Positions 1 through 34,746 of a DNA stretch of 34,746 bases are shown here, piece by piece. The notes below the pieces were generated by a model. The model made no database searches. It was not told where the DNA came from and saw only the letters and a program-made list of their open reading frames with translations. The stretch's first letter is position 1; each line of letters opens with the position of its first letter. The translations under genes were made by a program, and so were the position numbers. The stretch lies in IMG/VR virus record IMGVR_UViG_3300020403_000040, positions 1 through 34,746 of that record; one strand, 5' to 3'. Source of the DNA: a virus (taxonomy: Duplodnaviria; Caudoviricetes).

Positions 1-2
1 TT

Positions 3-3000
3 TTCGTTTACAATTGCTACAACTTGATCTGAATCAAATCCAGATTGAGTTACGCCAAGATACTTGAAGATAGTTACTACGTCATCTGAATCTGGAGCAG
101 ATAGTAATGTTATAGTACTACCATCTGTAGCAATATAATCATCGGAATCTTCTAATAAGATACCATTAGAATATACTTGTATTTTACCAGCAGTATATGA
201 TAATAAGTTGTTATGAGTATCTCTACCAGATATTTCTGAATCACCTACTGTAGAACCACCATCAGGTGTATACTTAAAGGTAAATCTAGATATTTCTAAT
301 TCTTGAGTTACATCTTTACCAAAATACTTTAATACAGATAACTTATCATCACTGTCAGCTGCGGAAACTAAAGTAACTAAGGTACCATTAGTAGCGGTAT
401 AATCAGTGGTATCCATCATTAAGATACCATTTAAGAATACTTGAATCTTATCTACTGCATATGATAAAGTATTACCATTATCATCTGAACCACTAAACGC
501 TGTTTGACCTTGAGTTGCAGTATAATCAAATCTAGTAATGGTAAGATCAGTTAAATTATCATTAAAGATAGCAGCAACTGTATCTGAATCAAAAGTAGAT
601 CTCATCTTTTGAATAACTACTACATCATCTGAATCAGCTGCTAGATTTAGTACTACTGATGTACCGTTTGTAGCGGTATAGTCATCTGAGTCGTTTATTA
701 GTACACCGTTTACATAGACGTTAATGTTTCCAGGTGTGTAAGATAAAGAATTGGTATTTCTATCTGCACCACTAAAAGTAGTCTGAGAATTATTTGCTTT
801 GTACTTAAATGTAGTAAATGTTGATTCTTGAGTAACTACACCACTAGTTTGTAAAGAGGTAATATCATTTCTAAGATCAGCTACAACCTTCAGATCAGAA
901 TCCGTCATACCGGTTCCTGAGCTTGTTGGATTTTCGTTTATTATAGCTACGATTTGATCTGAATCAAATCCTGCAGCTCCTCCGCCGCCTGATCCGCTTG
1001 AATGTGTACTATCAGAATCTTGTTCTATTCTCAGTTGATTAACAGCTTCTTGAAGTGCTTGTAACTTAACAGAATCTGAATCAACATCGTTTCTTAATTT
1101 AGCAACAACAGCTAAATCTGAATCAGTCATTCCAGTTCCAGTGCTATTCTCTGAAATCATAGAAGCTATTTGATCAGAATCAAAACCTTGTTTACCAATT
1201 CTAATAGTACCAACCATACCTGAATGTAGAGTACATTGATAAACTAAAGATTCAGGAGCATCCATAGGTACTACAAACTTAACTAACCCTACCTGAGCTC
1301 CATTATTAGTAACGCCAGATGAATAAGCCGAACCACCGCTAGATAATCTAATCTGGAAAGGATGACCAGAAGCGTTAACCCTAAAGTTATAAGTATGACC
1401 TCTGTGCAAGTAAATAGTTGGATTATCTACACCTGATGGGAAACCATCACCTGTGAAAGTATAAGCCGATGCACCGTTGTTGGCAACATCAAACGACACA
1501 TCCATATCAGTTCTTACTGATTGGATAGCAGTTTCGTCAGAATCTAATCTTGCAGTTAATGAGGTTTCAAGACTACTTAGTTCAGTATCAAGTGCTTGTA
1601 TCTTTAATTCATCTGAATCTAATCTAGGTCCTAATGTGCTTTGAAGAGCTTGAATAGCAGCAGAATCTGATTCTGCATTTTGTTTAATAATTACAATTGC
1701 AGCTGCATCTGATTCAGCATCTCTTCTAGTCTCTGCTAAGTTAAGTGCGTCAGAATCAGTAGATGCTAGTAGTAACTGTATTCTAGCTGTCTCTGAATCA
1801 AGACTAGTCATTACTGAATCTATTCTAGTAGATAGAGCTTGAATAGCTGCACTATCAGAATCCACATCATTTCTTAAAGTAGCAACAACGGACAAGTCAG
1901 AATCATTAGTCAAGTCGGAATAACTAGCTAATCTTATCCAGTTACCACCATGAGCAAAATAAGCTGCTCCAGTAGCGTGAACATGAGCAAACATACCATG
2001 GTAGGTAGATGCGTTAGGTAAATCTACTAGGTTAGAATACACGTTGGCAAATAATACTTTGTTACCGTTACCATCTATATCACCTGACATAGTACCACCA
2101 GCTAATGGTAATCTAGCTGATATAGCAATTTCATCTGAATCTAATCTGGATTCAATCGTAGTTACGTTAGCTTGTAATGCATTAATAGCTGTGAAATCAG
2201 AGTCAAGATCATTTCTAAGGTCAGCCATTACCTTTAGATCTGAGTCTCCTAATGCACCGCCTGATAAAGTTGTTATTTGAGCTTGTAAAGACTGTAGTAC
2301 TAACTCATCAGAATCGGCTCTACTTTCAAGTGAGGTAATTCTACCCCCGTATGCATTTTGAGTAGCTTGAAGAGTCGCAACTGTACCGTTGATAGTTTGT
2401 ACTTTAGCCGATTCAGAATCTACTCTAGCCTCTAGAAGGGTTATACGACCACCTTGAGAGTTAGTAGTAGAGTTTAAAGTCTGTATACTATCAAAGTTAG
2501 ATTTTATTCTAGTATTAAAATTACCAAAGTCGGAATCTAAATCATTGCGCAAGTCAGCTACAACTTTAAGATCTGAATCTGTCATTCCAGTACCAACACC
2601 GCCGCCGGAACCACCAGAGTTAGCGCTATCTGAATCTTGTTCTAATCTAAGTTGATTTACTTGTTCTTGAATCGATTGTAATTTTGTTTCATCTGAATCT
2701 GATCTTGCTTCTAGTGTAGCTAATCTTCCATTTTGAACTGTTTGAGTAGATTGTACTGAACTAACACTACTATCAATACTAGATAATCTAGCATTTATTC
2801 TAGCACTTTCAGAATCCATATCAGTTCTAATAGCTTGTATACCACTACTATCAGAATCTAAATCATTTCTAATTAATGTAATATATGCTGAATCTATATC
2901 AGCTTGAGTTTTAAGAGCTTGAATGACTATTGTATCTGAATCTGCGTCTCTTCTTAGTTCAGCAATAGCTATTTGATCACTATCAGCATTAGATAATAAC

Positions 3001-4013
3001 AATTGTATACGAGCTGTTTCAGAGTCTAGAAGATCTTTAGTTACTAGATTATGTTCACGGAACATGTTAACAACTTCTTCTGAATCAACCATAGTTAATA
3101 CAAATTCAGAATCAACTTTACCTAAGTTATTATTTACAAAATTAATAATAGTAACAAAGTTTTTATCAACGGTATCCATAACTCTATCAGAGTCATAGAA
3201 CCATCCGTGTTCACCACCCATATTAAAGACTTCATCAGAATCAACAAAGTCATCTTTAAGAGCTATTTCACCAGCTTTAATAATAGTTTGTACTACTCTA
3301 TCCGAATCAAAAGTAGCAGTAGTGTTTATACCTTTTTGTGCTGAGGCAATAACTAAATCGGAATCATGAAAAGGGTTACTACCAAAAGCACCAGTAGCTC
3401 TATAGTATTCAAATATATTATTAGGTGAACTGTTTTCACCTCTTACAAATCTTTTTATCCCTAGTAAAGAACCGCCATCAGAATCAGATTCTTGTTTTAA
3501 TCTTTGAATATCTCTTGCATGATCTGAATCGTTATCTCTAGATTCAATTCTAAAAGCTACAAAGTCAGTCTTAAGAGTTGACACTTTAGCTGATTCAGAA
3601 TCTACTCTATTCTGAACAGTTGCAATAGTTGCATCAACTGAATCAAATCTATTATTAACTCTAGCATACTCAGAATCAAACTGATTATTTACAATTTGAA
3701 TTTGACTATCAATATATTCACTTAATGCTTGAATAGCTATACTGTCACTATCAGCATCTGATCTTAATTTAGCTACAACTGCTAAGTCGGAATCAGTAAC
3801 CCCTGCGCCGCCACCACCAGATGTAAGAGCAGCAATGTCTAAATTTTTAAGAACTGTAGCTACAACAAGGTCAGAATCATATACTTCTGATTTGTTACTA
3901 CTTATATAACTAGTAACGAATTCTTCAACAGTGACCTGTGGGTCACCTATTTTTAATGTTGTAATGCCTCTCAGTTCACCAGTGCGAGCGTTATACGTAA
4001 ATCTTTGCGGCAT
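3..4013 (-). CDS. Giant virion fibre/structural protein (partial, runs off window start; at least 1337 aa) with coiled-coil segments, a His-rich module, a cupredoxin-like domain and beta-repeat domains
   Basis: Manually translated: ATG at 4013-4011 (MPQRFTYNARTGELRGIT), SD GAGG upstream, no in-frame stop to the window edge. Contains the fibre motif LPLAGGTMSGDI, YHGMFAHVH, GHPF...YQCTLHSGM and three VxxNG(V/I)L...DYxATxG repeats. Absent from the ORF track, presumably because it has no stop in the window. Confidence 0.9.
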   Translation of the reverse strand, partial: MPQRFTYNARTGELRGITTLKIGDPQVTVEEFVTSYISSNKSEVYDSDLVVATVLKNLDIAALTSGGGGAGVTDSDLAVVAKLRSDADSDSIAIQALSEYIDSQIQIVNNQFDSEYARVNNRFDSVDATIATVQNRVDSESAKVSTLKTDFVAFRIESRDNDSDHARDIQRLKQESDSDGGSLLGIKRFVRGENSSPNNIFEYYRATGAFGSNPFHDSDLVIASAQKGINTTATFDSDRVVQTIIKAGEIALKDDFVDSDEVFNMGGEHGWFYDSDRVMDTVDKNFVTIINFVNNNLGKVDSEFVLTMVDSEEVVNMFREHNLVTKDLLDSETARIQLLLSNADSDQIAIAELRRDADSDTIVIQALKTQADIDSAYITLIRNDLDSDSSGIQAIRTDMDSESARINARLSSIDSSVSSVQSTQTVQNGRLATLEARSDSDETKLQSIQEQVNQLRLEQDSDSANSGGSGGGVGTGMTDSDLKVVADLRNDLDSDFGNFNTRIKSNFDSIQTLNSTTNSQGGRITLLEARVDSESAKVQTINGTVATLQATQNAYGGRITSLESRADSDELVLQSLQAQITTLSGGALGDSDLKVMADLRNDLDSDFTAINALQANVTTIESRLDSDEIAISARLPLAGGTMSGDIDGNGNKVLFANVYSNLVDLPNASTYHGMFAHVHATGAAYFAHGGNWIRLASYSDLTNDSDLSVVATLRNDVDSDSAAIQALSTRIDSVMTSLDSETARIQLLLASTDSDALNLAETRRDAESDAAAIVIIKQNAESDSAAIQALQSTLGPRLDSDELKIQALDTELSSLETSLTARLDSDETAIQSVRTDMDVSFDVANNGASAYTFTGDGFPSGVDNPTIYLHRGHTYNFRVNASGHPFQIRLSSGGSAYSSGVTNNGAQVGLVKFVVPMDAPESLVYQCTLHSGMVGTIRIGKQGFDSDQIASMISENSTGTGMTDSDLAVVAKLRNDVDSDSVKLQALQEAVNQLRIEQDSDSTHSSGSGGGGAAGFDSDQIVAIINENPTSSGTGMTDSDLKVVADLRNDITSLQTSGVVTQESTFTTFKYKANNSQTTFSGADRNTNSLSYTPGNINVYVNGVLINDSDDYTATNGTSVVLNLAADSDDVVVIQKMRSTFDSDTVAAIFNDNLTDLTITRFDYTATQGQTAFSGSDDNGNTLSYAVDKIQVFLNGILMMDTTDYTATNGTLVTLVSAADSDDKLSVLKYFGKDVTQELEISRFTFKYTPDGGSTVGDSEISGRDTHNNLLSYTAGKIQVYSNGILLEDSDDYIATDGSTITLLSAPDSDDVVTIFKYLGVTQSGFDSDQVVAIVNE
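60..815 (-). repeat. Three tandem beta-rich phage structural repeats of about 70-80 aa
   Basis: Units: FKYKANNSQTTFSG..LSY..VYVNGVLINDSDDYTATNGTSVVLNLAADSDDVV; FDYTATQGQTAFSG..LSY..VFLNGILMMDTTDYTATNGTLVTLVSAADSDDKL; FKYTPDGG..LSY..VYSNGILLEDSDDYIATDGSTITLLSAPDSDDVV. Confidence 0.85.
2766..3026 (-). repeat. 14-residue (42-nt) periodic coiled-coil repeat with a D-S-D/E anchor
   Basis: Asp codons at 3024, 2982, 2940, 2898, 2856, 2814 and 2772: DSE-TARIQLLLSNA-DSD-QIAIAELRRDA-DSD-TIVIQALKTQA-DID-SAYITLIRNDL-DSD-SSGIQAIRTDM-DSE-SARINARLSSI-DSS. Confidence 0.85.
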
Positions 4014-4043: not shown

Positions 4044-5900
4044 TTATAGATTTACGGTTTTATACACATCTTCATACCAAGATGGCAATTCAGGTTCTCT
4101 ATTTTCATCAACTACTACCCATAAGTCACCCGTATTATCCATAATTCTCTCATTCATAGTCGCAAAAGATTGAAAACCTAAAGGCATATCATCTTCTTGT
4201 TCATTGAGTTTATCTTTGTAAATTTCATCTGATGGATTAGTTTCAGTCATTTCTTTCCAGTAATCAGAACCTACACACCATCCAAACAATACCATACACA
4301 TAACTAAATCATCATTAGTACCAGGTTCAGCTGCAAAAGAAGAGTTTACGTTATCATTTTTTCTTGTAAAGGTAGTCATCTCTACATAGATATCATAATC
4401 CGTAGTTAATAACTTATCAGTCTCTATAAGAGATTTAAAGTTAGAACAACCTTTAGTCTTTACAGATGCAGAGGTAGTAACACCTAGTTTTGAACTTTGT
4501 CCTTCTCCTAATACAAAACCAGCTCTTCCTTTAGTTACAGTTTTAAGTAAATTTTCATATTCAAAATCATCATGTAAAGCACCAACAACCTGACCACCAA
4601 CATCGTTAGTCTCTACCAAAATATGTGCGTTATTGAAAAATGTTCCTATGTTAGCTAAAAACTGAGGATAAATCATAGGTGTTACAGTATTCGATCTATA
4701 TTTAGCTACCACTTTATAAGGAATAGTAGTAACATCAAACACTACAAAGGCTGAATAATCTAATCTTAGACCTCTAGCACAATCAACTGTAATTAAGTAT
4801 CTATGATCTTCTTTTGGCTCTTCATAAAAATCTACTTCGTCTTTTTTTCTTATAGGATTAATAAAGGACATATTAGCTAACTTTGACGGTGATATAAGAG
4901 TAGAAGCTGAACCTATAAATTGAGTTTCAAATTCTTGTCTAAATTGATCTTCTGATGTGTTAGCTATCTGTTGCTGTTTCCAATTGTCATCTCTTCCTGG
5001 AACATCCCACCAGTTTATCTCTATAGGCTTAAAAGCTGATCTCTGCTCTTGAGCTTCCATCCACATTTTGTAAAAATGATTCATACCTTTAGGAGTAGAT
5101 ACTACTATCATTTTAGTATCTGAACCTGATGAGATAGTAGGATAAACGGAACGGAAAAAATCTTCAGCGTCATGAGGAGGTACAAATGCAAACTCATCTA
5201 GAAATAATAAACTAAATGACATACCTCGAGCAGCTGAACCAGAACTAGAAGTTGCAACAATTCTAGATCCGTTTTCTAAACTAATTGATCTTTTATTGTA
5301 AGTTTCAACACCTTGCTGTAACCAGAAAGGTAAACTTTCATATGCTAATTGTAATCTTCCTAACAACTCTTGAGCCAATTCACCTTTGTTAGCAAGTATA
5401 CCTACATTTTTACCTTGGTTAAAAAGTACATACCATAAAATAAAAGCAACACTTGTAGTAGATTTACCACACTGTCTAGGAAGTTTACATATACTAAATC
5501 TATTATCTTTAAAGCTGTCAACCATTTTCTTTTGAAAACCGTAAAGAGTAAAAGGAATAGCACCAAAGTCAACAGACATAATTTTAACGTAAGTCTCAGA
5601 AAAATATATTGGATCTTCCATACACTTTTTATATTCTCTAAGCTGTTCAGGAGTATATTCTAGATTTGAATGAGGAGCTTTTACGTTAGGATTACCTAAG
5701 TAATGAGATACATTAGTAGGATTTCTTACAAATAATTCAGGATGAGTTTCTTCAGTTGGCGCGTCTTTATAAGTTCTTTGTTCTGCTAACCAACCTAATA
5801 AATCTTTTTTAGTTTTAACTAATACTTCACCAAAAGTTTTCCAATCTTTATGTAGATTAGAATCATATTCTTTTTTAAGTACTACTTGATAATCGCTCAT
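4044..5900 (-). CDS. gp17: Terminase large subunit (T4 gp17-like)
   Basis: YLGNPNVK N-terminal motif, Walker A PRQCGKST, Walker B LLFLDEFAF, VSTPKGMNHFY, nuclease VDCARG and DDLVM. Confidence 0.97.
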   Translation of the reverse strand: MSDYQVVLKKEYDSNLHKDWKTFGEVLVKTKKDLLGWLAEQRTYKDAPTEETHPELFVRNPTNVSHYLGNPNVKAPHSNLEYTPEQLREYKKCMEDPIYFSETYVKIMSVDFGAIPFTLYGFQKKMVDSFKDNRFSICKLPRQCGKSTTSVAFILWYVLFNQGKNVGILANKGELAQELLGRLQLAYESLPFWLQQGVETYNKRSISLENGSRIVATSSSGSAARGMSFSLLFLDEFAFVPPHDAEDFFRSVYPTISSGSDTKMIVVSTPKGMNHFYKMWMEAQEQRSAFKPIEINWWDVPGRDDNWKQQQIANTSEDQFRQEFETQFIGSASTLISPSKLANMSFINPIRKKDEVDFYEEPKEDHRYLITVDCARGLRLDYSAFVVFDVTTIPYKVVAKYRSNTVTPMIYPQFLANIGTFFNNAHILVETNDVGGQVVGALHDDFEYENLLKTVTKGRAGFVLGEGQSSKLGVTTSASVKTKGCSNFKSLIETDKLLTTDYDIYVEMTTFTRKNDNVNSSFAAEPGTNDDLVMCMVLFGWCVGSDYWKEMTETNPSDEIYKDKLNEQEDDMPLGFQSFATMNERIMDNTGDLWVVVDENREPELPSWYEDVYKTVNL

Positions 5901-6256
5901 TCCTTACCCAACAAGTCTAACAAATCTTTTGTGTTTAATTTTACATTTAAGTTATTAGTTGTAGATTGTTTTTCTTTATTAGGGTTATTAAGCTTTTCTG
6001 TTCTAAGTTGGTGTTCCATCATTTTTTGCGCAATATCACTTAAAGCTGTGGCCGTACCTGTTGCTACTTCTATAGCTCTAGGATGCTCAGATTCTTGAGC
6101 TAACTGTACAGCAGCATCAAGAATATCTTGTAATCTTTCTGCCGATGAATATAATAATTCTCTAGAATAAGTATAATCATCGCCTCTATTTTGAAGTACT
6201 GTTGCTAAATCTTTTTCGATAACAGATACTTCTTGAGAAATGTCTTTCTCACTCAT
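5897..6256 (-). CDS. gp16: Terminase small subunit (T4 gp16-like)
   Basis: DDYTYSRE, AQESEHPRAIEV and TTNNLNV..TKDLLDLL motifs; 4-nt ATGA overlap with gp17; SD AGGAG. Confidence 0.9.
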   Translation of the reverse strand: MSEKDISQEVSVIEKDLATVLQNRGDDYTYSRELLYSSAERLQDILDAAVQLAQESEHPRAIEVATGTATALSDIAQKMMEHQLRTEKLNNPNKEKQSTTNNLNVKLNTKDLLDLLGKE

Positions 6257-6345: not shown

Positions 6346-6861
6346 ATGGCGTTATTAGGTATTTACATTTCATATATCATTTTAGCTTCTATTGGAGCTA
6401 CTTTTGGATTACATAGATATTGGTCTCATAAACAAGGTAAAAGAAGAATTTGGTTTGAATGGTTAAGTCTATTATGTGCTTTACCATTAGGTGTATATAA
6501 ACCTTTGGGTTGGATAGGTGTACATAGATTACATCATAAGTATTCTGATACAGAACTTGACCCTCATTGCCCGGATCACAAAGGTTTAAAAGTATTATTC
6601 TCAGACTTTTCAGATTCAAAAGTACCTTTATCTTTAGTTAGAGACGTAGCAGTAAATCCAAGGATACAATTTTTTCAAAAGTATGGAAAATATCTTATAT
6701 GGATATTTGTTTTTCTTACTCCATATTTTATAATTATGGCATATGCAGGTATGGGAATACTTAATTACTTTGGACACAATAATGGACAAGCTGTTAATAA
6801 CTGGTTGATTAATATATTAGCTCCATTCGAAGGTAATCATAAGGATCACCATACATGGTAG
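6346..6861 (+). CDS. Membrane fatty-acid desaturase (delta-9/DesC-like), compact
   Basis: Three His boxes (HRYWSH, HRLHHKYSDTELDPH, EGNHKDHH) and hydrophobic segments. Confidence 0.9.
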   Translation: MALLGIYISYIILASIGATFGLHRYWSHKQGKRRIWFEWLSLLCALPLGVYKPLGWIGVHRLHHKYSDTELDPHCPDHKGLKVLFSDFSDSKVPLSLVRDVAVNPRIQFFQKYGKYLIWIFVFLTPYFIIMAYAGMGILNYFGHNNGQAVNNWLINILAPFEGNHKDHHTW

Positions 6862-7517
6862 AACCACTCTTACACTTTGATTGGAAAGTCAACAAAGAAA
6901 AACTTAAACAAGCTTTTACTACTTTTCGTACTAGTCTTTCTCCCGATGATTATATAGCTCCTGACAGGTTAATTTCTATACCTATAAACAGAGTACCTAC
7001 TCATAATGATTGTCATGGTTACTATAAGTATGATGATGGAGAAGACATAACTTTTTATTATGTAGATAATACAGGGGTAAGAATTAGAACAGTATTTAAA
7101 TCAGCTGAAGGTAGTTTAGTTTCTCCAGACTTTCATAATGTTTGGTTTGAAAAGCATAGAGGTAAACCAGCAGTAGAATATATTATGTTTGAAATGGATT
7201 CTTTAGCTAAGAAATTAAGTATAGAAAAATATATTGTAAGGTGTTTAATACTTAAACCTAATAACTTTCTAACTTGGCACAAAGATGGTGAACTTGTAAA
7301 AGCTTCAGTAAATTTTCATATTGGTGAAAGTAGAGACCCTGTAACTTTTTGGCCTAATTTAAAATATGAATATAACACTGCTTTGTTAAACAATCAACAT
7401 TTTCATAAAGTAGATAGTGTATCATCTGAAAGAGTAACTCTTAAGCTCATAAGTTTATCTAGTAGTTATGAAGATATCTATAAAAGGATTAAAGATAATG
7501 ATTGTAAAATATACTGA
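6855..7517 (+). CDS. Putative 2OG-Fe(II) oxygenase (DSBH fold)
   Basis: LTWHKD (HxD), SVNF, LLNNQHFHKV (distal His), ERVTL (Arg). Confidence 0.7.
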   Translation: MVEPLLHFDWKVNKEKLKQAFTTFRTSLSPDDYIAPDRLISIPINRVPTHNDCHGYYKYDDGEDITFYYVDNTGVRIRTVFKSAEGSLVSPDFHNVWFEKHRGKPAVEYIMFEMDSLAKKLSIEKYIVRCLILKPNNFLTWHKDGELVKASVNFHIGESRDPVTFWPNLKYEYNTALLNNQHFHKVDSVSSERVTLKLISLSSSYEDIYKRIKDNDCKIY

Positions 7518-8151
7518 TTTAGATAAAGACCTTTATCAAAGGTTGTTAAAGGATTTAGAAAAACCAATATACATTGCAGATTATTATGCAGATAACTATT
7601 ACAAACCTGACGGTATTGAATCTCATTTTAAAATAAACATACCATTACCTTTAGGCGAAGAGCATAGAGTAAAGATTAAAGATTTACCTGCTAAAGGCTA
7701 TCGTTATACGAAAAAATATTCAAACGATATGTGGGATTCATATAATGATATACCTAATGGTAATCCGCATGCTATTATTGTATCAAAAGTTAAAGAAGAG
7801 CTAGCTCCATCAATTAGAGATATAATTAAACTAATAGTAAACAAAGAAGGTTATGTTGGTTATAATAAAGTAACATGTACACTTGCATGTAAAAGTAAAG
7901 ATTTTAAATTAGTAATACACACAGATAGATCAAGTCCTAAATTTACAAACGGTATTAGATATCATGTTATAGTAAAATCAAATGAAGATAACTATCTTTG
8001 TGATGTTGATGATTATGACGGTAACGGTTTAGTTGAACATAGAATGGAGGCAGGAACAATATGGGCTTTAGATTCAACTACACTTCATTACGCACATAAC
8101 AAAAGTACTAAAGAAGGTGGTATTCATCTTATAATAGATTTTATGGAGTAA
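7498..8151 (+). CDS. Aspartyl/asparaginyl beta-hydroxylase-like 2OG-Fe(II) oxygenase
   Basis: IHTD, RYHVIVKSN, GTIWALDSTTLHYAHN, IHLIID; start moved to ATG 7498 (AAGGA upstream). Confidence 0.75.
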   Translation: MIVKYTDLDKDLYQRLLKDLEKPIYIADYYADNYYKPDGIESHFKINIPLPLGEEHRVKIKDLPAKGYRYTKKYSNDMWDSYNDIPNGNPHAIIVSKVKEELAPSIRDIIKLIVNKEGYVGYNKVTCTLACKSKDFKLVIHTDRSSPKFTNGIRYHVIVKSNEDNYLCDVDDYDGNGLVEHRMEAGTIWALDSTTLHYAHNKSTKEGGIHLIIDFME

Positions 8152-8153
8152 AA

Positions 8154-8984
8154 ATGGTAGCTAAATTTCATAATATAAAACTCAAAGAAATGAGCAATGA
8201 ACAAATAAGAAAATGGGCAGGTATACTTCCTTATGATAATATAGTAGTGCTTAGAGATCAAGACTTAAGTAAAAAAGATCTTTCTAGAGTTTACAATTCT
8301 ATAGGTAATACATTAAAAACAGACGAGTTCTTTTGTGATGAAGAATATCCAGAATTGATGAGAGTAACAAACGAAAGAAAAGATGATGAAAAAATTGGTA
8401 TTTTTGCTGATAAAGAATTAGATTGGCATAGTAATGGTAATGGTAGACCAAGCGGAGTAGAGTGCTGTGTAGGTTTATATTGTGTTAAGCCAGGAAAGAA
8501 TAGTGTAACAAGTTTTTGTGATACCAGAGCTGCATATGATGATCTTAGCCCTGCATTAAAATTAGAACTTAGTAAAATAAAATGTTTGTTTAAGTTTGAA
8601 AATAATACTTTTTATGATTTAGATGAAGATGATAAAGAGTTAGTTATGTTTGAGAATAGAGGTGAGTATGCTCGAGGTACTATCAAGCCTCTAGTTTATA
8701 CACACCCATTTGATGGCAAAAAAGGATTGTATTTTACTTTTCATTATATACAAAAAATGTATAAAGTGCCAGAAGAAAGACAAAAGTTTTTAAAAGAATT
8801 TTTATTTGATCATGTGTTTCAAGAAAAGTATATCTATCATCATGATGATTGGCAACCTGGAGATCTGATTTTTATGGATCAGTTTCATAGTATACATAAA
8901 CGTAATGCAGTAGAAGGTGATAGGTTTATGTATAGAACAACTTTGGATTATACTCATGTTTACAACACCAGTGAAAATTATTAA
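8154..8984 (+). CDS. TauD/TfdA-family 2OG-dependent dioxygenase
   Basis: VVLRDQDL, WHSNG, TSFCDTRAAYDDL, PLVYTHP, WQPGDLIFMDQFHSIHKR, RFMYR. Confidence 0.88.
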   Translation: MVAKFHNIKLKEMSNEQIRKWAGILPYDNIVVLRDQDLSKKDLSRVYNSIGNTLKTDEFFCDEEYPELMRVTNERKDDEKIGIFADKELDWHSNGNGRPSGVECCVGLYCVKPGKNSVTSFCDTRAAYDDLSPALKLELSKIKCLFKFENNTFYDLDEDDKELVMFENRGEYARGTIKPLVYTHPFDGKKGLYFTFHYIQKMYKVPEERQKFLKEFLFDHVFQEKYIYHHDDWQPGDLIFMDQFHSIHKRNAVEGDRFMYRTTLDYTHVYNTSENY

Positions 8985-9477
8985 TGCAGACTTTAATTTA
9001 AAAGATATAGAAATAAAATTAAAAAAGAATTTGCACAAAGCTGATAAAGTAGGAATCGAATCTAGAAAAGATTATTACTATAAAGTAAATTTTGATTTTG
9101 CTGACATATCAGAAAAATTATTAGAATATTCTAAACCCTTTTTATCTGAGCTTGGTATGAAGGATGAGATAGAAATAGATATGTGGGGTAATTATTACCC
9201 AGGTATATGTGTATGTGGTAAACATAATCATTTAAGAAGAAACGTAGTACTATCTGGTATACTTTATATTAAACCAGAGAATGGAATTACTAGATTTTTT
9301 GACCCCATGGCGGAATGGCATGATCAGTTTGGTTATTGGAATATTAGAAAAGGTATAAACGAATACTCTCCTATACCTAATGTGCTATTATTATTTCCTC
9401 CATATTTAGTTCATGATGTTGTTATGTTATCTAATCAAGAAAGGATTACTGTAGCCTTTGATATTAAAGCTAGATAG
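8956..9477 (+). CDS. Putative 2OG-Fe(II) oxygenase (TIGR02466-like)
   Basis: MWGNYY, HNH, LSGILYI, FFDP, LLLFPPYLVHDV, RITVAFDI; start uncertain (8917, 8956 or 8971). Confidence 0.8.
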   Translation: MFTTPVKIINADFNLKDIEIKLKKNLHKADKVGIESRKDYYYKVNFDFADISEKLLEYSKPFLSELGMKDEIEIDMWGNYYPGICVCGKHNHLRRNVVLSGILYIKPENGITRFFDPMAEWHDQFGYWNIRKGINEYSPIPNVLLLFPPYLVHDVVMLSNQERITVAFDIKAR

Positions 9478-16396: not shown

Positions 16397-16418
16397 TGCA
16401 GACCTCCCGTCGTTAATG

Positions 16419-16436
16419 CATATAAATATTTATATG
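16419..16436. promoter_or_regulatory. Bidirectional T4 late promoter: perfect 18-bp palindrome CATATAAATATTTATATG
   Basis: Exact TATAAATA on + (16421-16428) and on - (16434-16427), between the divergent nitroreductase and radical SAM genes. Confidence 0.8.
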
Positions 16437-26602: not shown

Positions 26603-29600
26603 TTATATGTCAGCTATAATTCTTAAATCTTTTATGCGAGGAATCTGAGCTTCGTTTTCAGTAATCATTCTTATTCTAATCTTAAAGGATGTAAATTCAA
26701 AAGGTACATTTGCACTAACTGTATATTCTTTAAAATCAGTATCTGAAGTAAACGGTCCATTATTAGATTCAGTAATAAATTGTGTTACTTTAAAGTCTTC
26801 AAAAGCAATATCTTCAAATGGAGTAGTATCACCTTTTTGTCTTGCTTTATATGCAAACTCTAATTTAGACCCAGGTTCCATATCAGCGTCAAACTTAATT
26901 GTAAAACCATCTGCTGGAATTTCTAAATCAATTTGTTTTGTAACATAAGCACTAAATTCATCTTCTGATTTTATTGCAGATAGTCTAGAAGTGTATTCTT
27001 GAATAGTTGAATCAGTACTACCACTAGTAATAGATGTCGTAGTTAAACCTTCTATGTCAGAATCATTTAGTAATGTACCTACTATGTTTCTAAACACAAC
27101 AGGGTTAAGTGAATCTCTAACTCTAAATGAAGGTGAACTATATATGTTTGTACTATCTAAAGTATATCTCATAACTAGATCATTTGACGTAGAGTTTAAC
27201 AAGTTTCTAACAATATGAGGTTCTTCTAACTCAGTATATTCATTTATATCTATAGGTACTTCAACCCCTGAAGTAACATTTGCTAAAGAATCGTTCTTAA
27301 TTTTATTAGAATCAACTACTAGATTAAGAGAGTTAGTAGTAGCTGAGGTTAAGAAACCGTTAACTTGATCATCTTCCTGTCCTTTAAAGAAAGGTACGTT
27401 AGCTTGTAAACTATCAAATACAATTGGTTGAGTTGCAAATGTATTAAAGATAGGTACAGGAGGATTACCTGATGAAGTTGCTTTAGTTGTAGTTTTTACA
27501 AAGTAAGAATCTAAAGTAGCAAACAACACATCATGAGTCCCATTAAGCTCTGAATCAGGAATACCATTAAAGTTATTAGGAGTACCGAATCTATCAAAAC
27601 CTTCTAAAGTAACTTCTGCATTATTAAAGTGCATACCATGATTAGGATGATTTATTCTTACATAGTTACTATTCTCAAAAGTTTCAATAGCTAATCCTCT
27701 ATTAAAAGCTCCAATGTCTGCTTTATATGTCTTAAGATTGCTTAACTCATTTTTCATGGTAAAGGTAGATGTTGGTGGTACACCTGTACCGTCAATATCA
27801 AAATTAGCTCTATTCAATCTAAATGTTAGATCCATATTCTGTTCAGCAGTCCATGTAGTCTGATTTTGCGAAACAAAGAACGAGCCAAAATAGCCCCCTA
27901 CGTTAGGTTGATTTTCATGTATACCAGAGCCATCTAAAAGTTGCTGACCTATTTCTGCTATAAAGACTTCTGTAGCATCAGAAGGTGATTTTATAACTAT
28001 AGAATATTCAGTATCACCTTTTAAGTAAATAGGTTCTTTAAATCTAAAGTTAGTAAAGTTTGTAGCAGTTGGAGATTCTACTTCCATTGATTTATCTACA
28101 TTTACAAAACCTGTATGTCCTATAACATGTTTTGGACCACCAGGATAACCGTTTACTGATTCTCTGATATCAATAATAATTTTATCCATTCCTGGTCTTG
28201 TATCTACAAAACACATCCAAAGATCAATAGAAGTAACGATAGCTACTGGTTCAGTACCAAAAATATCTCCAGCAAGAATTTGCGCAGTAGTAGGATCACC
28301 TTTAGTAGGTAATTTAAAGAGTTGAGCAATAGGATCACCACTATCTCCTCCACCATTATCATCATCTGGCGGATCAGGAATTCTAAACGAAGATTGACTT
28401 ACTACTTGTCTGCCAAGATTTGTAGTATCAATTCTTTTATCATCTACATCAGCTATTACATCTGCAAAATCTCTGTGACCTATAGACGTAAAGATAGTAG
28501 AAGCACTTGAAGCTCTTCCACTTATTGCAACATCTCTAATTATAACTCTTTCTTCACCTGCTTTAAAAGTTTGATAAGGTATATTAAATGATCCAGATGT
28601 TGCTCCATTAGCATCAGTATTGATACTTGGAATAATAGTAGTGTCACCCATAACTAATTCATGTTCAGTATTAGCTCTTAAACCATCAACTTCGAAAGTA
28701 ATACCACCTGATGGATTTATCATAAAGTAATCTTGCAAGTTTTGAATTACTTCAGAACCTGTAATAGTTTCACTTGGTTTAGTACCATCTATAACTCTAG
28801 GAGAACCAAAAGTAGTAGTAGTTACCCTTCTTCTAGCTTGAGTAGTGGTAGTAGTAACTACATTGCCTACTTGAGAAGAAGATGTACTTCTAGCGCCAAA
28901 CCATTCAGTTCTAGAGGAACTAGAACCTCCTGGAGATGCTGTTGTTACTCTTAAGAATTGACTGAACGTATCTGAATCACCACTAAACGGTCTCACTCTT
29001 CCATTAAACCTTGTAAAGTAATTATTTACTCTAGTTCTCCAATGGTGTTCAGAAGGTGTAATCTGTAACTCACCTCTATAAATCCAAGTTGCAAACGGAT
29101 TAATTAGATGACATCTAGTTGCTTGAGGTTGAGATAAAAATTCTTCTTCGTTATACTTCTTTATTACAATATCTGCATTATTATAATAATAGCTGTCTAT
29201 ACTTTCACTGCTAGATAATTCCATAGGAATAGGAACACCTTCAGTTTGTCCCGGAATCAATATATTATCTACTACATCAATTGAAGCGTTATATTCAGGG
29301 TGTTCAGTATCGGCTGAACTATTAGGGTTATTCTCTGCTAAAGAAAAGTCATCAACTACAAATCCAGACTTTGCTCTATCATCTAAATTATCATGCAAAG
29401 CTTGAGACTCTAATAAAGATAATGCTACAGAAGTTTCTAATCGGTTAACTCTATCTTCTATTTTACCGATATCTCTCATAGTGTATCTTTTATTATCTAC
29501 TTTTTCAACATCAATCTCTTCTTCTGCATATCTTAACCCACCAGGAATAGTAAGATAAAATAACGCCATAGCATCTTTTACTTCTTGTGGCTTTTTAGGA

Positions 29601-32302
29601 TTTTTTAGAGCTGGGTTACCTTTTTGAAAGATTAAAGCATTATCTTTGTCAATACTAATGCTTGTAATATTTCCTTGAAACTGCTCAAAGTCAGTAGTAA
29701 AGACAGTATCTGGTTTAATTCTTGGTTGTTTAAAATAGTTTCTTGACTTAAAATACAAAGGTGATTCAGTAATATCAGTAACTATATCTTCAACTCTAAA
29801 TCTGAAGTCTATTGAGTTTCTTAAGTCTCTACCTTTATTTCCTGGTTTATCATTAACAGGTTGTGGTTCATTATAAAATCTTACATCATCTTTGTAATAA
29901 TCGAATTTACTATAACTATCAGTACTGTAATAAAAAGTGTTAATAGGACTAGCAGTAAAGTAAGAGTAGAATACAATAATATCATTTGATGCAGGAGCTT
30001 GTTTACCTCTAGCTCTTACAAGCCTGCCAATATCATAGAATTCACTTCTTTGACCATTATCTAAATTATATAAACCGTCTATACTACGACCTGTAGCTGC
30101 AGTAGCGCTAGTATAAGTTATAGGACTAGTATATGCTGATGTACCTGCTGGTGATGTTACTTTAAGAGGTTCATTTGCAGTAAATTCGGTATTCTTTTGA
30201 TATATGATTTCTAAAGTTGAAGTAGAACCAGTTCCAGTTAAGAAGCTATGATAACCTGAAGTACCAGCTATATCACCTGCTCCAGTTGAGGTAGCATTTT
30301 GTAAAACTACTAATGCTTCAGTACCAGAAGTTAATCCTTTTATTACTGATCCTACAGGTACTAAACCAGTAGTAGATATTTCTATTCTAGGAAACTGACC
30401 AGTAGAAAATGAAGAACTTGTAGTTTCGTTTATTCCATAAACTTTATATACATCTGGATAGGCTAATGAAATTTGAGCATCTTGAGCTGACCATCCAAAG
30501 TTAACTCCTGTACGAGCTGCTGAACCTGTATTTTTAATCTTTACATATTTAAAGTTTATATTCTTTTCAATCTCTTCTTGATCATCAACTCTGCTTTCAT
30601 TCCAATAACCATTCATAGTACCTGAAGCCAAACCAGTGTCTTCAAGAATAGTAAAGTCATTATCAAATACTGTTGCAGTACCTCTAAGAGTTTTTATCTC
30701 GTTAGATAAAGTGTTTATCAGTTCTGGATTAAGATTAAGCGGTTCAGAAACTGAAGCAGTAAAACCTCCGGCTCCTGATACACTAACTACATCATTTAAC
30801 TCAAACACTTGAGAGTTACTAACTGTAACAGAAGCTCCTATTGTAGCTACAGTAGATGTTACATTTTGAGAGAAAGGTATTCTACCTGACCAACCTATTA
30901 GAGTTGTAGCATTTCCTGTTACACCTGCTTGACCATCAGCGTTATAAACATAACCTACTTGTCTGCCCACTTTAATATCGTTACCATCGGAAACTGTAAT
31001 AGATGAATTAGTAACAATAACCTGAAACATCTTAACGTCATAAACATACAAGCTATTGTTAAGAAAACCATAAGCACGTGCTACACCAATTACATCACCA
31101 TCAGAATCTTTTAGTTGTAATCTATTAGCATACGTATAAGGATCACTTCCTGTTTGCCCTGGTAAAGTTCCAGAAGATGATGAAACTAAAAAGTTTGTAA
31201 TATTATTAAACGGTACTTTAAAATTATTAGTTCTAACCGCATCAGTATTTTTAGTAAAGTTAAAGTTTCTAGGAGCTGAAAGTTCTACTTCAAAACCTTT
31301 AACATAAGCTTTAGATGGACCAACTCTAAGATCGTAAGTATCTGAATCTAAATCGGTGATAGTTAGCGGGAAAGGTCTAACACTATAATTACCTGATTCA
31401 TCATATGTTCTTCTAGCTAAAGTATTTCCTATATCTGAATATTGAGGGTTACCTTTTATCTTATCAGTAATAACTCCATTTTCTATAGTTACTACTCTAA
31501 AGAAATCTTCTTCATCTTCTGCGTCTATATTAACAACTGCAAATGATAATGTTTGTTTTAATCTGTGCGAGCCGGGTGCACCTTCATTAGATGTGCCTCT
31601 AGCATTATCATAAAGAGTAGAATCATTATTTTGAGTTGTTATTGATTGTTCTGCTCTAAAACCTAATTTAGCTGTAGGTGTTTGAGATGAAGTGCTTATT
31701 GCTACAGTCTGTCTAGGAACTCTAGTAAAGAAACCGTTAACATAATAAATGCCTTCAGCTATTTCACCTATACAAGAAGGTGATTTAGCACTAAAGGTGT
31801 TTACTAATTCAGAAGTAACTGTACCTGGATTATCAGCTATGGTAGCATAGATAAATCCGCTATCACCAAATTCTTTAGCAGTAATATATTGAACAAATAG
31901 GTTACCGACATTACTTAAGGTATTTGAAGAAGCTGGTTGTTTAATAACTCTAGCTCTAACTGAACCGTCTGCGCTTGTTATAATTTTACCTTCTAAAGTA
32001 GCAATATTAGCTATACTTGAACCTGTCCTAGCATTTTCTAAAGGAAAAGAAGCGTTACCTGAGCCTGATAAGAAAAGACGGTGAACATTATTTGTAATTG
32101 ATACGCCACCTTCACTAACTCTTGAACCGTTTTTGAAAACATGATCACCAAATCTATTAACTTGGTTTTGCATAAACGATTGTAAGGTTGTTAACTCTCT
32201 TGCTTGAACTGGAAAACCAGGACGAAATAGGACCCTTAGAAAATCTTTATCAGGATCAAAATCATCGAAGTAAGGAGATACGTTTAAGTTTATATTAGCC
32301 AT
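26603..32302 (-). CDS. Large baseplate/virion structural protein (VrlC / DUF4815-like)
   Basis: NLNVSPYFDDFD..RVLFRPGFPVQARELTTLQ, APGSHRLK, LARRTYDESGNY, RYTMRDIGKIEDR, KSGFVVDDF, DPIAQ, PRIKDLRIIA. Confidence 0.88.
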   Translation of the reverse strand: MANINLNVSPYFDDFDPDKDFLRVLFRPGFPVQARELTTLQSFMQNQVNRFGDHVFKNGSRVSEGGVSITNNVHRLFLSGSGNASFPLENARTGSSIANIATLEGKIITSADGSVRARVIKQPASSNTLSNVGNLFVQYITAKEFGDSGFIYATIADNPGTVTSELVNTFSAKSPSCIGEIAEGIYYVNGFFTRVPRQTVAISTSSQTPTAKLGFRAEQSITTQNNDSTLYDNARGTSNEGAPGSHRLKQTLSFAVVNIDAEDEEDFFRVVTIENGVITDKIKGNPQYSDIGNTLARRTYDESGNYSVRPFPLTITDLDSDTYDLRVGPSKAYVKGFEVELSAPRNFNFTKNTDAVRTNNFKVPFNNITNFLVSSSSGTLPGQTGSDPYTYANRLQLKDSDGDVIGVARAYGFLNNSLYVYDVKMFQVIVTNSSITVSDGNDIKVGRQVGYVYNADGQAGVTGNATTLIGWSGRIPFSQNVTSTVATIGASVTVSNSQVFELNDVVSVSGAGGFTASVSEPLNLNPELINTLSNEIKTLRGTATVFDNDFTILEDTGLASGTMNGYWNESRVDDQEEIEKNINFKYVKIKNTGSAARTGVNFGWSAQDAQISLAYPDVYKVYGINETTSSSFSTGQFPRIEISTTGLVPVGSVIKGLTSGTEALVVLQNATSTGAGDIAGTSGYHSFLTGTGSTSTLEIIYQKNTEFTANEPLKVTSPAGTSAYTSPITYTSATAATGRSIDGLYNLDNGQRSEFYDIGRLVRARGKQAPASNDIIVFYSYFTASPINTFYYSTDSYSKFDYYKDDVRFYNEPQPVNDKPGNKGRDLRNSIDFRFRVEDIVTDITESPLYFKSRNYFKQPRIKPDTVFTTDFEQFQGNITSISIDKDNALIFQKGNPALKNPKKPQEVKDAMALFYLTIPGGLRYAEEEIDVEKVDNKRYTMRDIGKIEDRVNRLETSVALSLLESQALHDNLDDRAKSGFVVDDFSLAENNPNSSADTEHPEYNASIDVVDNILIPGQTEGVPIPMELSSSESIDSYYYNNADIVIKKYNEEEFLSQPQATRCHLINPFATWIYRGELQITPSEHHWRTRVNNYFTRFNGRVRPFSGDSDTFSQFLRVTTASPGGSSSSRTEWFGARSTSSSQVGNVVTTTTTQARRRVTTTTFGSPRVIDGTKPSETITGSEVIQNLQDYFMINPSGGITFEVDGLRANTEHELVMGDTTIIPSINTDANGATSGSFNIPYQTFKAGEERVIIRDVAISGRASSASTIFTSIGHRDFADVIADVDDKRIDTTNLGRQVVSQSSFRIPDPPDDDNGGGDSGDPIAQLFKLPTKGDPTTAQILAGDIFGTEPVAIVTSIDLWMCFVDTRPGMDKIIIDIRESVNGYPGGPKHVIGHTGFVNVDKSMEVESPTATNFTNFRFKEPIYLKGDTEYSIVIKSPSDATEVFIAEIGQQLLDGSGIHENQPNVGGYFGSFFVSQNQTTWTAEQNMDLTFRLNRANFDIDGTGVPPTSTFTMKNELSNLKTYKADIGAFNRGLAIETFENSNYVRINHPNHGMHFNNAEVTLEGFDRFGTPNNFNGIPDSELNGTHDVLFATLDSYFVKTTTKATSSGNPPVPIFNTFATQPIVFDSLQANVPFFKGQEDDQVNGFLTSATTNSLNLVVDSNKIKNDSLANVTSGVEVPIDINEYTELEEPHIVRNLLNSTSNDLVMRYTLDSTNIYSSPSFRVRDSLNPVVFRNIVGTLLNDSDIEGLTTTSITSGSTDSTIQEYTSRLSAIKSEDEFSAYVTKQIDLEIPADGFTIKFDADMEPGSKLEFAYKARQKGDTTPFEDIAFEDFKVTQFITESNNGPFTSDTDFKEYTVSANVPFEFTSFKIRIRMITENEAQIPRIKDLRIIADI

Positions 32303-32320
32303 TTTTCACCGTAATTTAAT

Positions 32321-32328
32321 TATTTATC
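32321..32328 (-). promoter_or_regulatory. T4-type late promoter-like box (GATAAATA)
   Basis: At the gp8 stop, upstream of SD GGTGA and the ATG at 32302. Confidence 0.55.
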
Positions 32329-33757
32329 AGAAACTTAGTACAAAATTTATAGATTCAATTTGATCTTGAGATCTAATTAATGGACGAGCTTTCCAGTCAG
32401 CAACTATTAACTCTCCAGAATTAAAAATAATATCTCTATCAAAAGTTTTGTTTATAGTATGAATTTTATTAACACCATCTATTAGAACAACTTGTTCACT
32501 ATCGGTAAATTTTTCATGTTCTTTATCGTTAACAAAATTAATGTAGTATACTCTATTCAAATCAATAGCAACTACTCTTGCTCTTCTTCCATCATCAACA
32601 GGATGAGGTTTAATTATATCGTTTACATTATAAGAAGCTGTTGTTGCATCAACTTTAAAACTCTTACAAGCTACATAAAAATCTTGAGATGCTATATTTT
32701 CCGTTGCTATATCAATAGGGTTTCTTATCAAGTTTGCCATTTGATATTGATTTTGAGCTAAAGGTAAAAACTCATCTTGAGGTATATTTCTAGAAACCAG
32801 CATAATATTTACCGCATTAAGATCACTAGGAGCATCTGAACCATGACCTAAACCACCAGCTATCTTAGATGTACAACCAGGCAGTAGTTTCCCATCTTGA
32901 TCTTTTACTTTCAATACACCTACATATCCTAATCCGTTTTGAGTAAGAGCAGGTTTAAATGAGTTTGACTCAGAATCATATCTAATTGTTGCTTGAAAAT
33001 GTTGTTCAATTAAATCGCTATCTAATCTAGAATCTGACACTCTAACTTGAACTGTTCTATCTAAAGTCCAATCACTATCTCTTCCTGCTTTTAAAGTATC
33101 ACTATCAAAAGCAAAACCATATACAGCTCCTAGCTGAGCGTTTTCTTGTACTGCATATTGTAAGTATCTAGAAGTACCGGGAACTAAAGTAGCAGCTTCT
33201 TCTTCTGTTACTCTTTCAGGCACAGGCATAAATTCTGAGTTAAGAAATCTTACAGCGTCAGAATTAGATATTGAATACAAATATTGCCACACATAACCAT
33301 CTGACATAGTAATAGGAGATGCACTTGTCCCAGTTGGTGCATTTAAAGATGGTGTATTAGGAGAGAATAAACATTTATAGACATTTAATCTACCAACACC
33401 CGAAACAAACTCTCTTACTAATACATAAAAATTTTGTTCTGAAGGCCATGCATTGTAAATTCTATTATTAATCCAATCTATTCTAGGTACACATCTACTA
33501 ATTCCACCAGGTAAAATTCTATGAAGAGTTAAAGTATTCTGGTTGTAAAAAGATTGATCATCAGCAGCAAAGTCTGAATCTGCACCACCAGCAAATTCTG
33601 ATTCACTATCAAAGCTAGAAGAATAATCGTTGTAATCACTGTCTTTAGTAAAAGCAGTTGCAGCATAAAACGTTTCTTCATTTGTAGCTTTTTTCAAACT
33701 ATCAAACAAAGCTTTTGCTAACAAAATATTAATATTAGGTGTTACTTTTGCTGTCAC
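32327..33757 (-). CDS. gp8: Baseplate wedge subunit (gp8)
   Basis: VPRIDW, NFYVL, VYKCL, PTGTS, DGYVWQYLYSI, FMPV, GHGSD, ESINFVLSF. Confidence 0.88.
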   Translation of the reverse strand: MTAKVTPNINILLAKALFDSLKKATNEETFYAATAFTKDSDYNDYSSSFDSESEFAGGADSDFAADDQSFYNQNTLTLHRILPGGISRCVPRIDWINNRIYNAWPSEQNFYVLVREFVSGVGRLNVYKCLFSPNTPSLNAPTGTSASPITMSDGYVWQYLYSISNSDAVRFLNSEFMPVPERVTEEEAATLVPGTSRYLQYAVQENAQLGAVYGFAFDSDTLKAGRDSDWTLDRTVQVRVSDSRLDSDLIEQHFQATIRYDSESNSFKPALTQNGLGYVGVLKVKDQDGKLLPGCTSKIAGGLGHGSDAPSDLNAVNIMLVSRNIPQDEFLPLAQNQYQMANLIRNPIDIATENIASQDFYVACKSFKVDATTASYNVNDIIKPHPVDDGRRARVVAIDLNRVYYINFVNDKEHEKFTDSEQVVLIDGVNKIHTINKTFDRDIIFNSGELIVADWKARPLIRSQDQIESINFVLSF

Positions 33758-34746
33758 TTTACTCTTCTACCTTTCATGGAATTAAAAGTATCTCTCCAAG
33801 GCTCTAAACCTGGTCTTTGATTCTCATCATTCCAGTCAAATATATTTCCTACACTATTATTTAATACAGCTTCGTCACCTGTTTGATAGTGTGTATTCCA
33901 TATTATATTATCCGAATCTAAGTTATCCCATACTATAGGTTTCCAAGGAGTTTTTTCTTTTCTATAATCCGGCATTCTTTTTTCTGCATATGTTACGTAT
34001 AAAAATCTAGGCTTAACTTTCATATTTTGAATAAAAGAACTATATCCGTTTATTTCCCATCCTTCGCTATCCGCTCTAAATGAATTAATAAAGTTCCATT
34101 TTCTTTCATATGCATCTACATCAGTATAAACAGTACCATCCTGTTCAACAAATGTTAAAGTACCATCAAGTCTCATAGCTTTGTTTAAGTCAGTAGCTTT
34201 CTTAAACATCATTTCTTTTTTTCTATCAGTATTATACCACTTGAATGTTCTAGGATCTTGTCCAGTTTTTAATCTATTATAATCTATAGCTGTGTACACT
34301 CTGTTTTCACTATCAGTCCATCTTAAATGAAAACCAACAGGTAAATCTGAATCATAGATATCATATACATCGTTTATAGGGTCAATAAACTTAGTACTAG
34401 CTACTTGAATAGGATCATAACTTCTTCTAGTTCTAGATTCTCTTTTATAAAGATCTTGAATAGTACCATCAAACTTTTTATAGTTTTTTATTAAAGCAGA
34501 TACTTTACCACTACCATCTGAATCTTGAGAAGTAACATGTCTTATAAAAGATGTTTCAGAATCAAAATTTAAATAATTGTTGTAAAAATTATCATAATCT
34601 ACATATTCTTTTCTTACCAAACCTAAGGGCTCAAAATCAAACCAGGAAGCACCAAATTCCGATACTAGTGCTTCATCAAAACCTCTTTCAAAGCTGCTTG
34701 CAGTTAGAGCATATATTTTGTTACTTTGTTGATTATAGTATCTTGC
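33754..34746 (-). CDS. C-terminal part of a large baseplate protein (gp7 position), partial
   Basis: Frame is open past 34620 to the window edge (..ARYYNQQSNKIYALTASSFERGFDEALVSEFGASWFDFEPLGLVRKEY..); 4-nt overlap with gp8; identity inferred from synteny only. Confidence 0.6.
   Translation of the reverse strand, partial: ARYYNQQSNKIYALTASSFERGFDEALVSEFGASWFDFEPLGLVRKEYVDYDNFYNNYLNFDSETSFIRHVTSQDSDGSGKVSALIKNYKKFDGTIQDLYKRESRTRRSYDPIQVASTKFIDPINDVYDIYDSDLPVGFHLRWTDSENRVYTAIDYNRLKTGQDPRTFKWYNTDRKKEMMFKKATDLNKAMRLDGTLTFVEQDGTVYTDVDAYERKWNFINSFRADSEGWEINGYSSFIQNMKVKPRFLYVTYAEKRMPDYRKEKTPWKPIVWDNLDSDNIIWNTHYQTGDEAVLNNSVGNIFDWNDENQRPGLEPWRDTFNSMKGRRVK

Follow-up and report, generated by a model that had tools for sequence, protein, structure and literature searches.

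Short motifs that mark proteins for modification have been described in several systems, and these are the natural comparison for the tripeptide Asp-Ser-[Asp/Glu] (D-S-[D/E]), which is strongly over-represented in structural proteins encoded by the virus contig IMGVR_UViG_3300020403_000040. The window analysed here is that entire contig of 34.7 kb (positions 1..34746). To our knowledge, virion proteins of tailed phages are assumed to be mostly unmodified, with few exceptions, none of them with a recognised sequon across many proteins.

The SdgB/SdgA system of the staphylococcal SD-repeat adhesins also places its Ser within Asp-Ser-Asp on a surface structure; SdgB O-GlcNAcylates Ser in DSD motifs, 59 N-acetylglucosamine (GlcNAc) residues having been added for 60 DSD motifs (PMC3794999). 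However, the adhesins are one protein family with long SD dipeptide arrays, whereas the phage sites are single, scattered over unrelated proteins and also accept Glu at the third position, and no PF00534 enzyme was found in any of five phage records. SdgB itself we take to be a member of the glycosyltransferase (GT) family GT-B PF00534. The phage motif falls outside the Sdg system but would work like it. Mycobacteriophage virions are glycosylated by phage-encoded GTs, with glycans on capsid proteins (Freeman et al. 2023, cited in PMC11256854). The GT genes considered here are phage-encoded as well (a GT-A-like gene, i18, in the window; GT8-like and GT25 genes in relatives), but the tag is on the tail exterior and not on the capsid, and glycans were shown there whereas the evidence here consists of genes and a motif. 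The Bacteroidetes O-glycosylation sequon D(S/T)(A/I/L/M/T/V) (PMC4030854) likewise is a three-residue Asp-Ser-x spread across many unrelated proteins. The phage motif differs insofar that its third residue is Asp or Glu, that Thr is not accepted (D-T-[DE] 15 observed, 35.7 expected) and that D-S-[I/L/V/T] is at expectation. Bacteroidetes O-glycosylation acts on exported proteins, and virion proteins assemble in the cytoplasm.

Two further reports concern phages directly. The host enzyme MepM methylates a phage tail protein at an ELS motif (PMC13445384), again a short tail-protein motif read by a modifying enzyme, but that case involves one protein and a methyl group, and ours dozens of sites in about ten protein classes. 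Pelagimyophages and cyanomyophages have a host recognition cluster between VrlC and gp14, whose GTs are read as modifiers of the host O-chain; the word “motif” is absent from the main text of that report (PMC7029224). The window resembles this cluster, and the island of the cultured Pelagibacter phage Mosig (PMC7892664), in having a variable island with GT and radical SAM genes in its structural region, but unlike the host recognition cluster the window's island lies between the post-gp15 fibre genes (open reading frame (ORF) 19639) and gp16. A literature search, with subscription journals mostly outside its coverage and supplements excluded, found no description of the motif in phages.

Counts, strictness and distribution of the motif

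Across the ten structural-block ORFs of the window (6084 amino acids, the motif-free ORF 20073 included), D-S-[D/E] was observed 94 times against 6.85 expected, or about 14 times chance, as isolated tripeptides of which 72 are DSD (72/4.58; DSE 22/2.27; here and below such pairs are observed/expected). The long fibre carries 47 sites, against a mean of 2.5 and a maximum of 9 in 2000 shuffles, and in seven ORFs the count is above that of every one of 2000 shuffles, global or local; 30-residue local shuffles left the outcome unchanged. The VrlC-like protein reaches p=0.018 with its 5 sites, and ORF 25653, with 1 site, is alone not significant (p=0.22). Permuted motifs stayed near chance in the same ten ORFs (SDD 8/4.6, DDS 2/4.6, ESD 3/2.3; SDE, at 8/2.3, overlaps DSDE), and the substituted forms DTD (2/4.0) and NSD (1/3.4) were not enriched. 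In the 20 ORFs of the enzyme island (4525 amino acids) the count is 2/2.4, and gp16, gp17 and ORF 19639 have no site. A preliminary description, which had called the motif a candidate virion-wide decoration site, gave counts by eye that we reproduced for the fibre, ORF 20967, gp15, gp14, ORF 25653, the VrlC-like protein, gp8 and the gp7 fragment; for the gp9/10-like ORF the enrichment stood, with a recount of 7 in place of 6. Its observations of scarcity in the island and absence from gp16 and gp17 were also upheld.

Could composition, repeat expansion in the fibre, or a DNA motif such as GANTC have produced the enrichment as an artefact? Some of the fibre sites do lie within repeated modules, and 44 of the 47 have a TCN codon for Ser. 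Outside the fibre, however, 47/4.33 sites occur in non-homologous proteins, so duplication is no explanation, as had been argued previously; local shuffles agree, and ES is not enriched (30/26). All six Ser codons and both Asp codons are used, AGY codons occupying 15 of the 47 non-fibre sites versus a background of 29%, and GANTC, which is rare and not enriched off-frame, was rejected. The earlier view that selection acts on the protein and not on the DNA thus holds. Together with the strictness and the turnover described below, in which each subclade gains sites at new positions, these results refute the artefact.

The motif is strict. In 56 motif-rich proteins, a set picked by at least 3 sites and informative only through its controls, D-S-[DE] stands at 685/42, D-T-[DE] at 15/36, E-S-[DE] at 14/20 and N-S-[DE] at 19/33, with nearly free flanks. 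A hydrophobic third residue is at expectation (D-S-A 23/22, D-S-I 20/22, D-S-L 21/21, D-S-V 19/21), and D-x-[DE] with any other middle residue, Thr included, is at or below it. Ser at the sites was kept in 93.8% of 321 comparisons versus 65.7% for other Ser. The relative G003 (65-89% identity) keeps 32 of 32 sites; far subclades share only 16 of 32 window sites and bear 43-48 of their own. We interpret these alignments as purifying selection on the motif with turnover of sites between subclades.

Among distinct gp15-anchored loci, all 42 within the clade (at least 55% identity) have observed/expected ratios of 5.9-24 and none of 22 outside reaches 5, the loci being related rather than independent. 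A third group of 26 loci, from a search for the D-S-small motif introduced below and from genome tiles, was kept out of this contrast, and the long metagenome contigs L392 and L395 were covered for 10 kb on each side of gp15. Since the best matches among 50,697 phage records are about 40% identical for gp15 and 54% for gp17, the clade, a group of marine T4-like phages with no cultured member, has no close named relative. A search of species genomes for clade members, intended to find the host, gave none; island gene exchange with the SAR11 phage Mosig would point to a similar host.

In the long relatives the tagged proteins are gp7 (143/8.6), gp8 (60/3.2), VrlC (51/9.8), gp14 (45/2.7), gp15 (40/1.6), sheath (15/1.3), gp13 (10/0.6), gp53 (6/0.6) and the fibres, classes that we take, from T4 architecture, to face outward. 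Capsid (1/0.5, 2 proteins), portal (1/1.4), tube (0/0.3), gp6 (0/2.5), gp25, gp48, gp26, gp27-like, gp21 and gp17 (0/2.4) are untagged, and gp5 stands at 4/1.6. “Virion-wide” was therefore too broad, as capsid, portal, tube and inner baseplate proteins lack the tag; it is a real and strongly selected feature of the outer tail, neck, baseplate and fibres of this clade. In the relative G001, two ORFs distant from the structural block (G001:36231-36881 and G001:41968-42933; L037, L038) have 5 DSD each and no Pfam hit. By their motif content they are likely unrecognised virion proteins, and the motif could thus predict outer virion components.

A short pattern search led to a second group of phages with D-S-[A/D/S/G/N], but not Glu or Thr third (D-S-small). 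On the gp15 tree the DSD clade of the window (19 rows, 100/100), the D-S-small clade (22 rows, 98/93, five of them carrying a wrong label from the threshold) and the motif-free phages (17 rows, 94/88) separate three ways, so that a single origin of the motif is possible. The tagged classes are largely common to both clades, with gp13 and gp53 tagged in the DSD clade only. C48C1 (OQ984149.1), a complete GenBank genome related to the D-S-small clade, shows DSD in weaker excess (38/19.0), mainly in fibres and sheath and in part within tandem repeats. This genome (L400-L404) also carries GT25, famB, IGNG and i18-type genes.

Reading of the motif and search for a writer

We estimate at roughly one half the probability that D-S-[D/E] is a sequon for O-modification of Ser, likely glycosylation. 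According to this reading an enzyme in the infected cell would modify the motif Ser, most likely by O-glycosylation; the writer would be a GT-A sugar transferase of the phage and not the entire island, and the result would be a shield or surface coat on the tail. Asp and Ser are invariant in both clades while Ala or Gly is allowed third in the D-S-small clade, which would make Ser the target. The proposal of a modification site in the preliminary description is thus retained as a protein-level tag, through indirect evidence (strict Asp and Ser, selection, turnover, placement at loops and helix starts, depletion in core proteins), and its proposal that the island serves the site is not.

Structural placement adds to this. 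The AlphaFold model of gp8 (predicted local distance difference test (pLDDT) 83.5; fold confirmed against T4 gp8) has 5 of its 8 sites in coil, 3 at helix starts and none in strand; across 15 clade gp8 orthologues, all 23 site columns lie outside strands, which make up 35% of the model. In the fibre, 16 of the 20 sites assignable to heptads start at b, so that their third residue falls on the core position d; another 26 sites lack a heptad signal. Six motif-free datasets hold the pattern R-h-x-x-N-E 17 times in total, four DSD datasets not once; the latter have an Asp form in its place 7-13 times each. From this replacement we conclude that the motif evidently takes the place of an Asn core layer of the fibre coiled coils in the DSD clade. 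A residue at the core position would have to be modified before or during assembly.

Clade-matched depletion was measured in conserved, non-redundant proteins common with motif-free phages, outer classes and fibre-like compositions having been removed. Core proteins of the DSD clade have D-S-[DE] at 13/32.5 versus 45/48.7 (p=0.004, rank 5 of 212 comparable motifs); those of the D-S-small clade have their own motif at 46/84.6 versus 86/103.4 (p=0.012, rank 5 of 212) and D-S-[DE] at a normal level. A first protein set gave p=0.01 and 0.04, and a second DSD set was discarded since it was contaminated by clade-specific fibres. This depletion offers modest support for a motif-reading enzyme, which would also act on enzymes.

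Of the chemistries considered, glycosylation has the best support, through association and through the SdgB precedent. Genes for sugar transferases and nucleotide sugars abound in motif-bearing genomes, each of the 10 long records with the motif holds at least one tested sugar-transferase-type family, and of five motif-free long records three have none and HTVC008M has only the IGNG type. GT25 is present in 7 of these 10 and in none of the 5 without the motif. Outside the island lies a second GT cluster (G001:105-6996, G007:62135-67604), with genes of the GT25, famB and IGNG types; all long motif-bearing records that cover its location have it, as does Mosig. True i18 homologues were found in 8 of the 10 records and in Mosig, whose i18 family has 3 members; the i18 profile matched nothing in the PDB under E 0.2. 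An i18-type GT is the only island gene still possible as writer, and for the DSD clade alone. The “IGNG” MptE/Maf-like family was rejected in that role because of homologues in Mosig and HTVC008M; the forms found in the two clades gave a weak alignment (HHalign probability 35%, E 4e-4; Pfam PF01973 E about 0.1), with no PDB hit. GT-B PF00534 (GT4) was absent from all five records searched, among them two 85-86% and one 100% complete, with a control matching 14 of 14. Single-sequence tblastn negatives were too insensitive to be counted as absence, because profiles found these families in Mosig and C48C1.

If the glycosylation reading is true, a sequence-readable code would make modified virions predictable across marine metagenomes, would suggest a role for some sugar-transferase genes at present interpreted as modifiers of the host surface (PMC7029224, PMC12801897), and would point to a new cytoplasmic peptide-tag glycosyltransferase. 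A wider form of it, which we put forward tentatively and jointly with the tailoring of ORF 20073 discussed below, is that the two related clades share a cytoplasmic Asp-Ser-x glycosylation code whose third-position specificity has diverged (D/E versus A/D/S/G/N). Hundreds of tail, neck and fibre serines would then be coated, with sites gained in outer proteins, their coiled-coil cores included, and avoided in core enzymes.

The glycosylation reading should nevertheless be taken with caution, since a number of observations weigh against it. The existence of the modification, the identity of the sugar and the purpose as a shield are what we infer, and the comparison covers two or three lineages. 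No enzyme family tracks the motif cleanly: every GT-A, g105-type and IGNG family found in G001 recurs in Mosig, which is motif-free; neither the complete G011 nor G014 has a true i18 homologue; and the i18 tree does not cluster by motif, 85 of 500 shuffles being as low. GT25 was rejected as a universal writer as it is absent from G001 (85% complete), G002 and G005, the combined coverage of G001 and G002 appearing to leave only a small gap. Placement in gp8 was judged by secondary structure, and an acidic residue in a coiled-coil core would fit cation binding equally. As for the depletion, the protein set was defined three times, a looser set gave none for the D-S-small clade (0.85 versus 0.83), and S-D-[DE] is equally low in the DSD core set (18/32.5, rank 4).

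Two other explanations accept the tag and differ in what it does. That a host enzyme reads the motif, or that the change is no sugar but a phosphate on Ser or an alteration of the first Asp, is in our judgment unlikely. It agrees with the lack of a phage enzyme tracking the motif, strictness and depletion fit any cytoplasmic reader, and a host methyltransferase does act on a short phage tail-protein motif (PMC13445384). However, the motif-bearing genomes have the wealth of sugar-related genes noted above, and neither a phage kinase (PF00069) nor a phosphopantetheinyl transferase (PF01648) was found in any of the five records searched, which leaves host enzymes alone for this explanation. The carrier-protein phosphopantetheinylation site is D-S-L, and the third residue here is Asp or Glu, not hydrophobic. 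Rather doubtful, too, is an unmodified motif that serves cation binding (Ca, Mg, Fe) or gives the tail an acidic surface. Two carboxylates and a hydroxyl on a turn, the Asp in place of an Asn layer in the coiled-coil core, and the failure to find a writer speak for it, but the middle residue is strictly Ser, the Ala, Gly, Ser or Asn third in the D-S-small clade removes one ligand, and a passive motif is not expected to be avoided in core enzymes. Calcium-binding loops have the motif Dx[DN]xDG, and only 7 of 685 sites fit that full pattern (D-x-D-S-[DE]-G).

The enzyme island and ORF 20073

The structural block is interrupted by a mobile island of 20 ORFs (6346..19673, strand.), with 2 sites in 4525 amino acids. 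Its enzymes comprise a desaturase, TauD, 2OG-Fe(II) and Asp/Asn-hydroxylase-like oxygenases (the latter a beta-hydroxylase-like ORF at 12857..13345, plus strand; PF05118, E 5e-11), two radical SAM enzymes, nitroreductase-like, weak sulfotransferase-like and methyltransferase-like ORFs, and two GT-A-like ORFs. Three genes at the right end, all on the plus strand, are i18 (17501..18214), a predicted GT-A (GT8-like) glycosyltransferase with DxD; i19 (18202..18828), methyltransferase-like, with no Pfam hit and a Mosig homologue annotated as putative methyltransferase; and i20 (18825..19673), a predicted GT-A-like ORF with DxD, remotely related to the “famB” GT family. Beyond them lie ORF 19639 (19639..20076, minus strand, 0 sites) and the motif-free ORF 20073 (20073..20954, minus strand, 293 amino acids), which travel with the island.

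The preliminary description had proposed that the island's GTs, hydroxylases, sulfotransferase and methylases form a dedicated decoration system for D-S-[D/E]. An island with i18-type and i19-type genes does occur at the same place in 9 of 10 DSD records, six of which carry Asp/Asn-hydroxylase-like genes, and the window's i18 falls within an all-DSD branch of 8 (support 87, unstarred). Against this stands Mosig (MT647606), where 10 of the 20 island ORFs have homologues although the phage is motif-free (DSD 9/13.4, DSE 9/11.5, DSA 9/11.4). In G004 and G009, gp14, gp15 and the gp9/10-like protein are 82-94% identical to those of the window and keep their sites, but the island is of Mosig type, with seven genes 51-62% identical to Mosig's (i19 59-62%). 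G006, a 31 kb fragment (18% complete), has 156 sites and passes directly from the fibre genes to gp16, with no island at the locus, and the D-S-small genomes G011 (complete), G012 and G014 are tagged without the cassette. The motif's distribution is followed neither by the hydroxylases and TauD nor by the sulfotransferase-like ORF, the radical SAM enzymes or the methyltransferase. The Asp/Asn-hydroxylase-like family is also present in motif-free Mosig, G016 and G018 and was absent from G011, G012, G014, G015 and C48C1, and Asp hydroxylation or iron-chelator mimicry was rejected on this account; i20 is absent from the G001 and G002 islands and present in Mosig. As the island is moreover inherited with motif-free ORF 20073, we regard a dedicated decoration system as highly improbable.

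When co-occurrence with the island was followed across relatives, as had been suggested, ORF 20073 rather than the motif proved to be its companion. ORF 20073 and ORF 19639 co-occur with i19 in 21 of 22 datasets, and their levels of identity go with the island instead of gp15. The count leaves out C48C1, where an ORF 20073 domain is part of a fusion and i19 is lacking. Of 44 ORF 20073 homologues, 42 are without D-S-[DE]. The ORF 20073 model (pLDDT 91) has three similar helix-strand units by eye; its fold had no BFVD match, and the best PDB match (Z 5.1) is too weak for naming. We infer that ORF 20073 would be a better candidate substrate of the island than the tagged proteins. It is conceivable, as the other half of the tentative joint proposal above, that a swappable island tailors this passenger of its own, separately from the motif.

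Some minor observations concern these genes. In C48C1 the ORF 20073 domain is fused to a 3347-amino-acid protein. Structural proteins of Mosig have a mild DSS excess (15/6.0), which may be a weak, different tag. As a marker of the motif, i19, matched by only 2 of 50,697 phage records (one of them Mosig), was rejected, since it held neither for Mosig (140 of 141 kb read) nor for the part of the Ralstonia phage RsoM2USA that was read (50 kb). In the latter phage, L297 (MG752970.1 190000-211000) holds an array of about 30 paralogous ORFs of 200 amino acids starting MKL. The island at G007:25800-5400 (L058) has seven radical SAM/SPASM paralogues.

Layout of the window and neighbouring genes

The window's T4-like structural block comprises a gp7 fragment, gp8, VrlC, gp14, gp15, fibre-type genes, gp16, gp17 and a long fibre, all on the minus strand. 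A long tail-fibre-type protein of 1337 amino acids (1..4013; phrog_677, tail fibre PHROGs), which runs off the contig, has the 47 sites, and is followed by the terminase large subunit gp17 (4044..5900), with 0 sites a negative control, and the small subunit gp16 (5897..6256, 0 sites). On the other side of the island lie the fibre-type ORF 20967 (20967..22139, 9 sites), a protein with a gp9/10-like N-terminus (22132..23532, 7 sites), the tail terminator gp15 (23547..24413), whose 5 sites fall in a clade-specific insertion and a C-terminal extension, and the neck protein gp14 (24601..25653), with 6 sites in variable segments and termini. ORF 25653 (25653..26420), a clade-specific ORF of the block, has 1 site here, 4-5 in the G001 and G005 subclades and 0 in the G007-type subclade. 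The baseplate genes are the VrlC-like one (26603..32302), with 5 sites (10-11 in other subclades), the wedge gp8 (32327..33757, 8 sites) and the gp7-like fragment (33754..34746, 6 sites), which runs off the contig. In the G007-type subclade (L018:6000-9000, L114, L118, L395) the VrlC-like gene consists of two ORFs, with a desaturase-like ORF between them in L018 and L395.

Other gene clusters were seen in G001. One (G001:55081-67938; L038, L039) encodes an IGNG-type protein, UDP-glucose dehydrogenase, thymidylate-synthase-like protein, pyrophosphohydrolase, DNA alpha-glucosyltransferase-like protein, epimerase and cytidylyltransferase, a possible DNA sugar-modification system. Regions G001:8037-11270 and 70940-76726 hold a ketoacyl synthase, a short-chain dehydrogenase and two TauD genes, and in addition a block whose homologues in HTVC008M are its curli-associated and adenylate cyclase genes.

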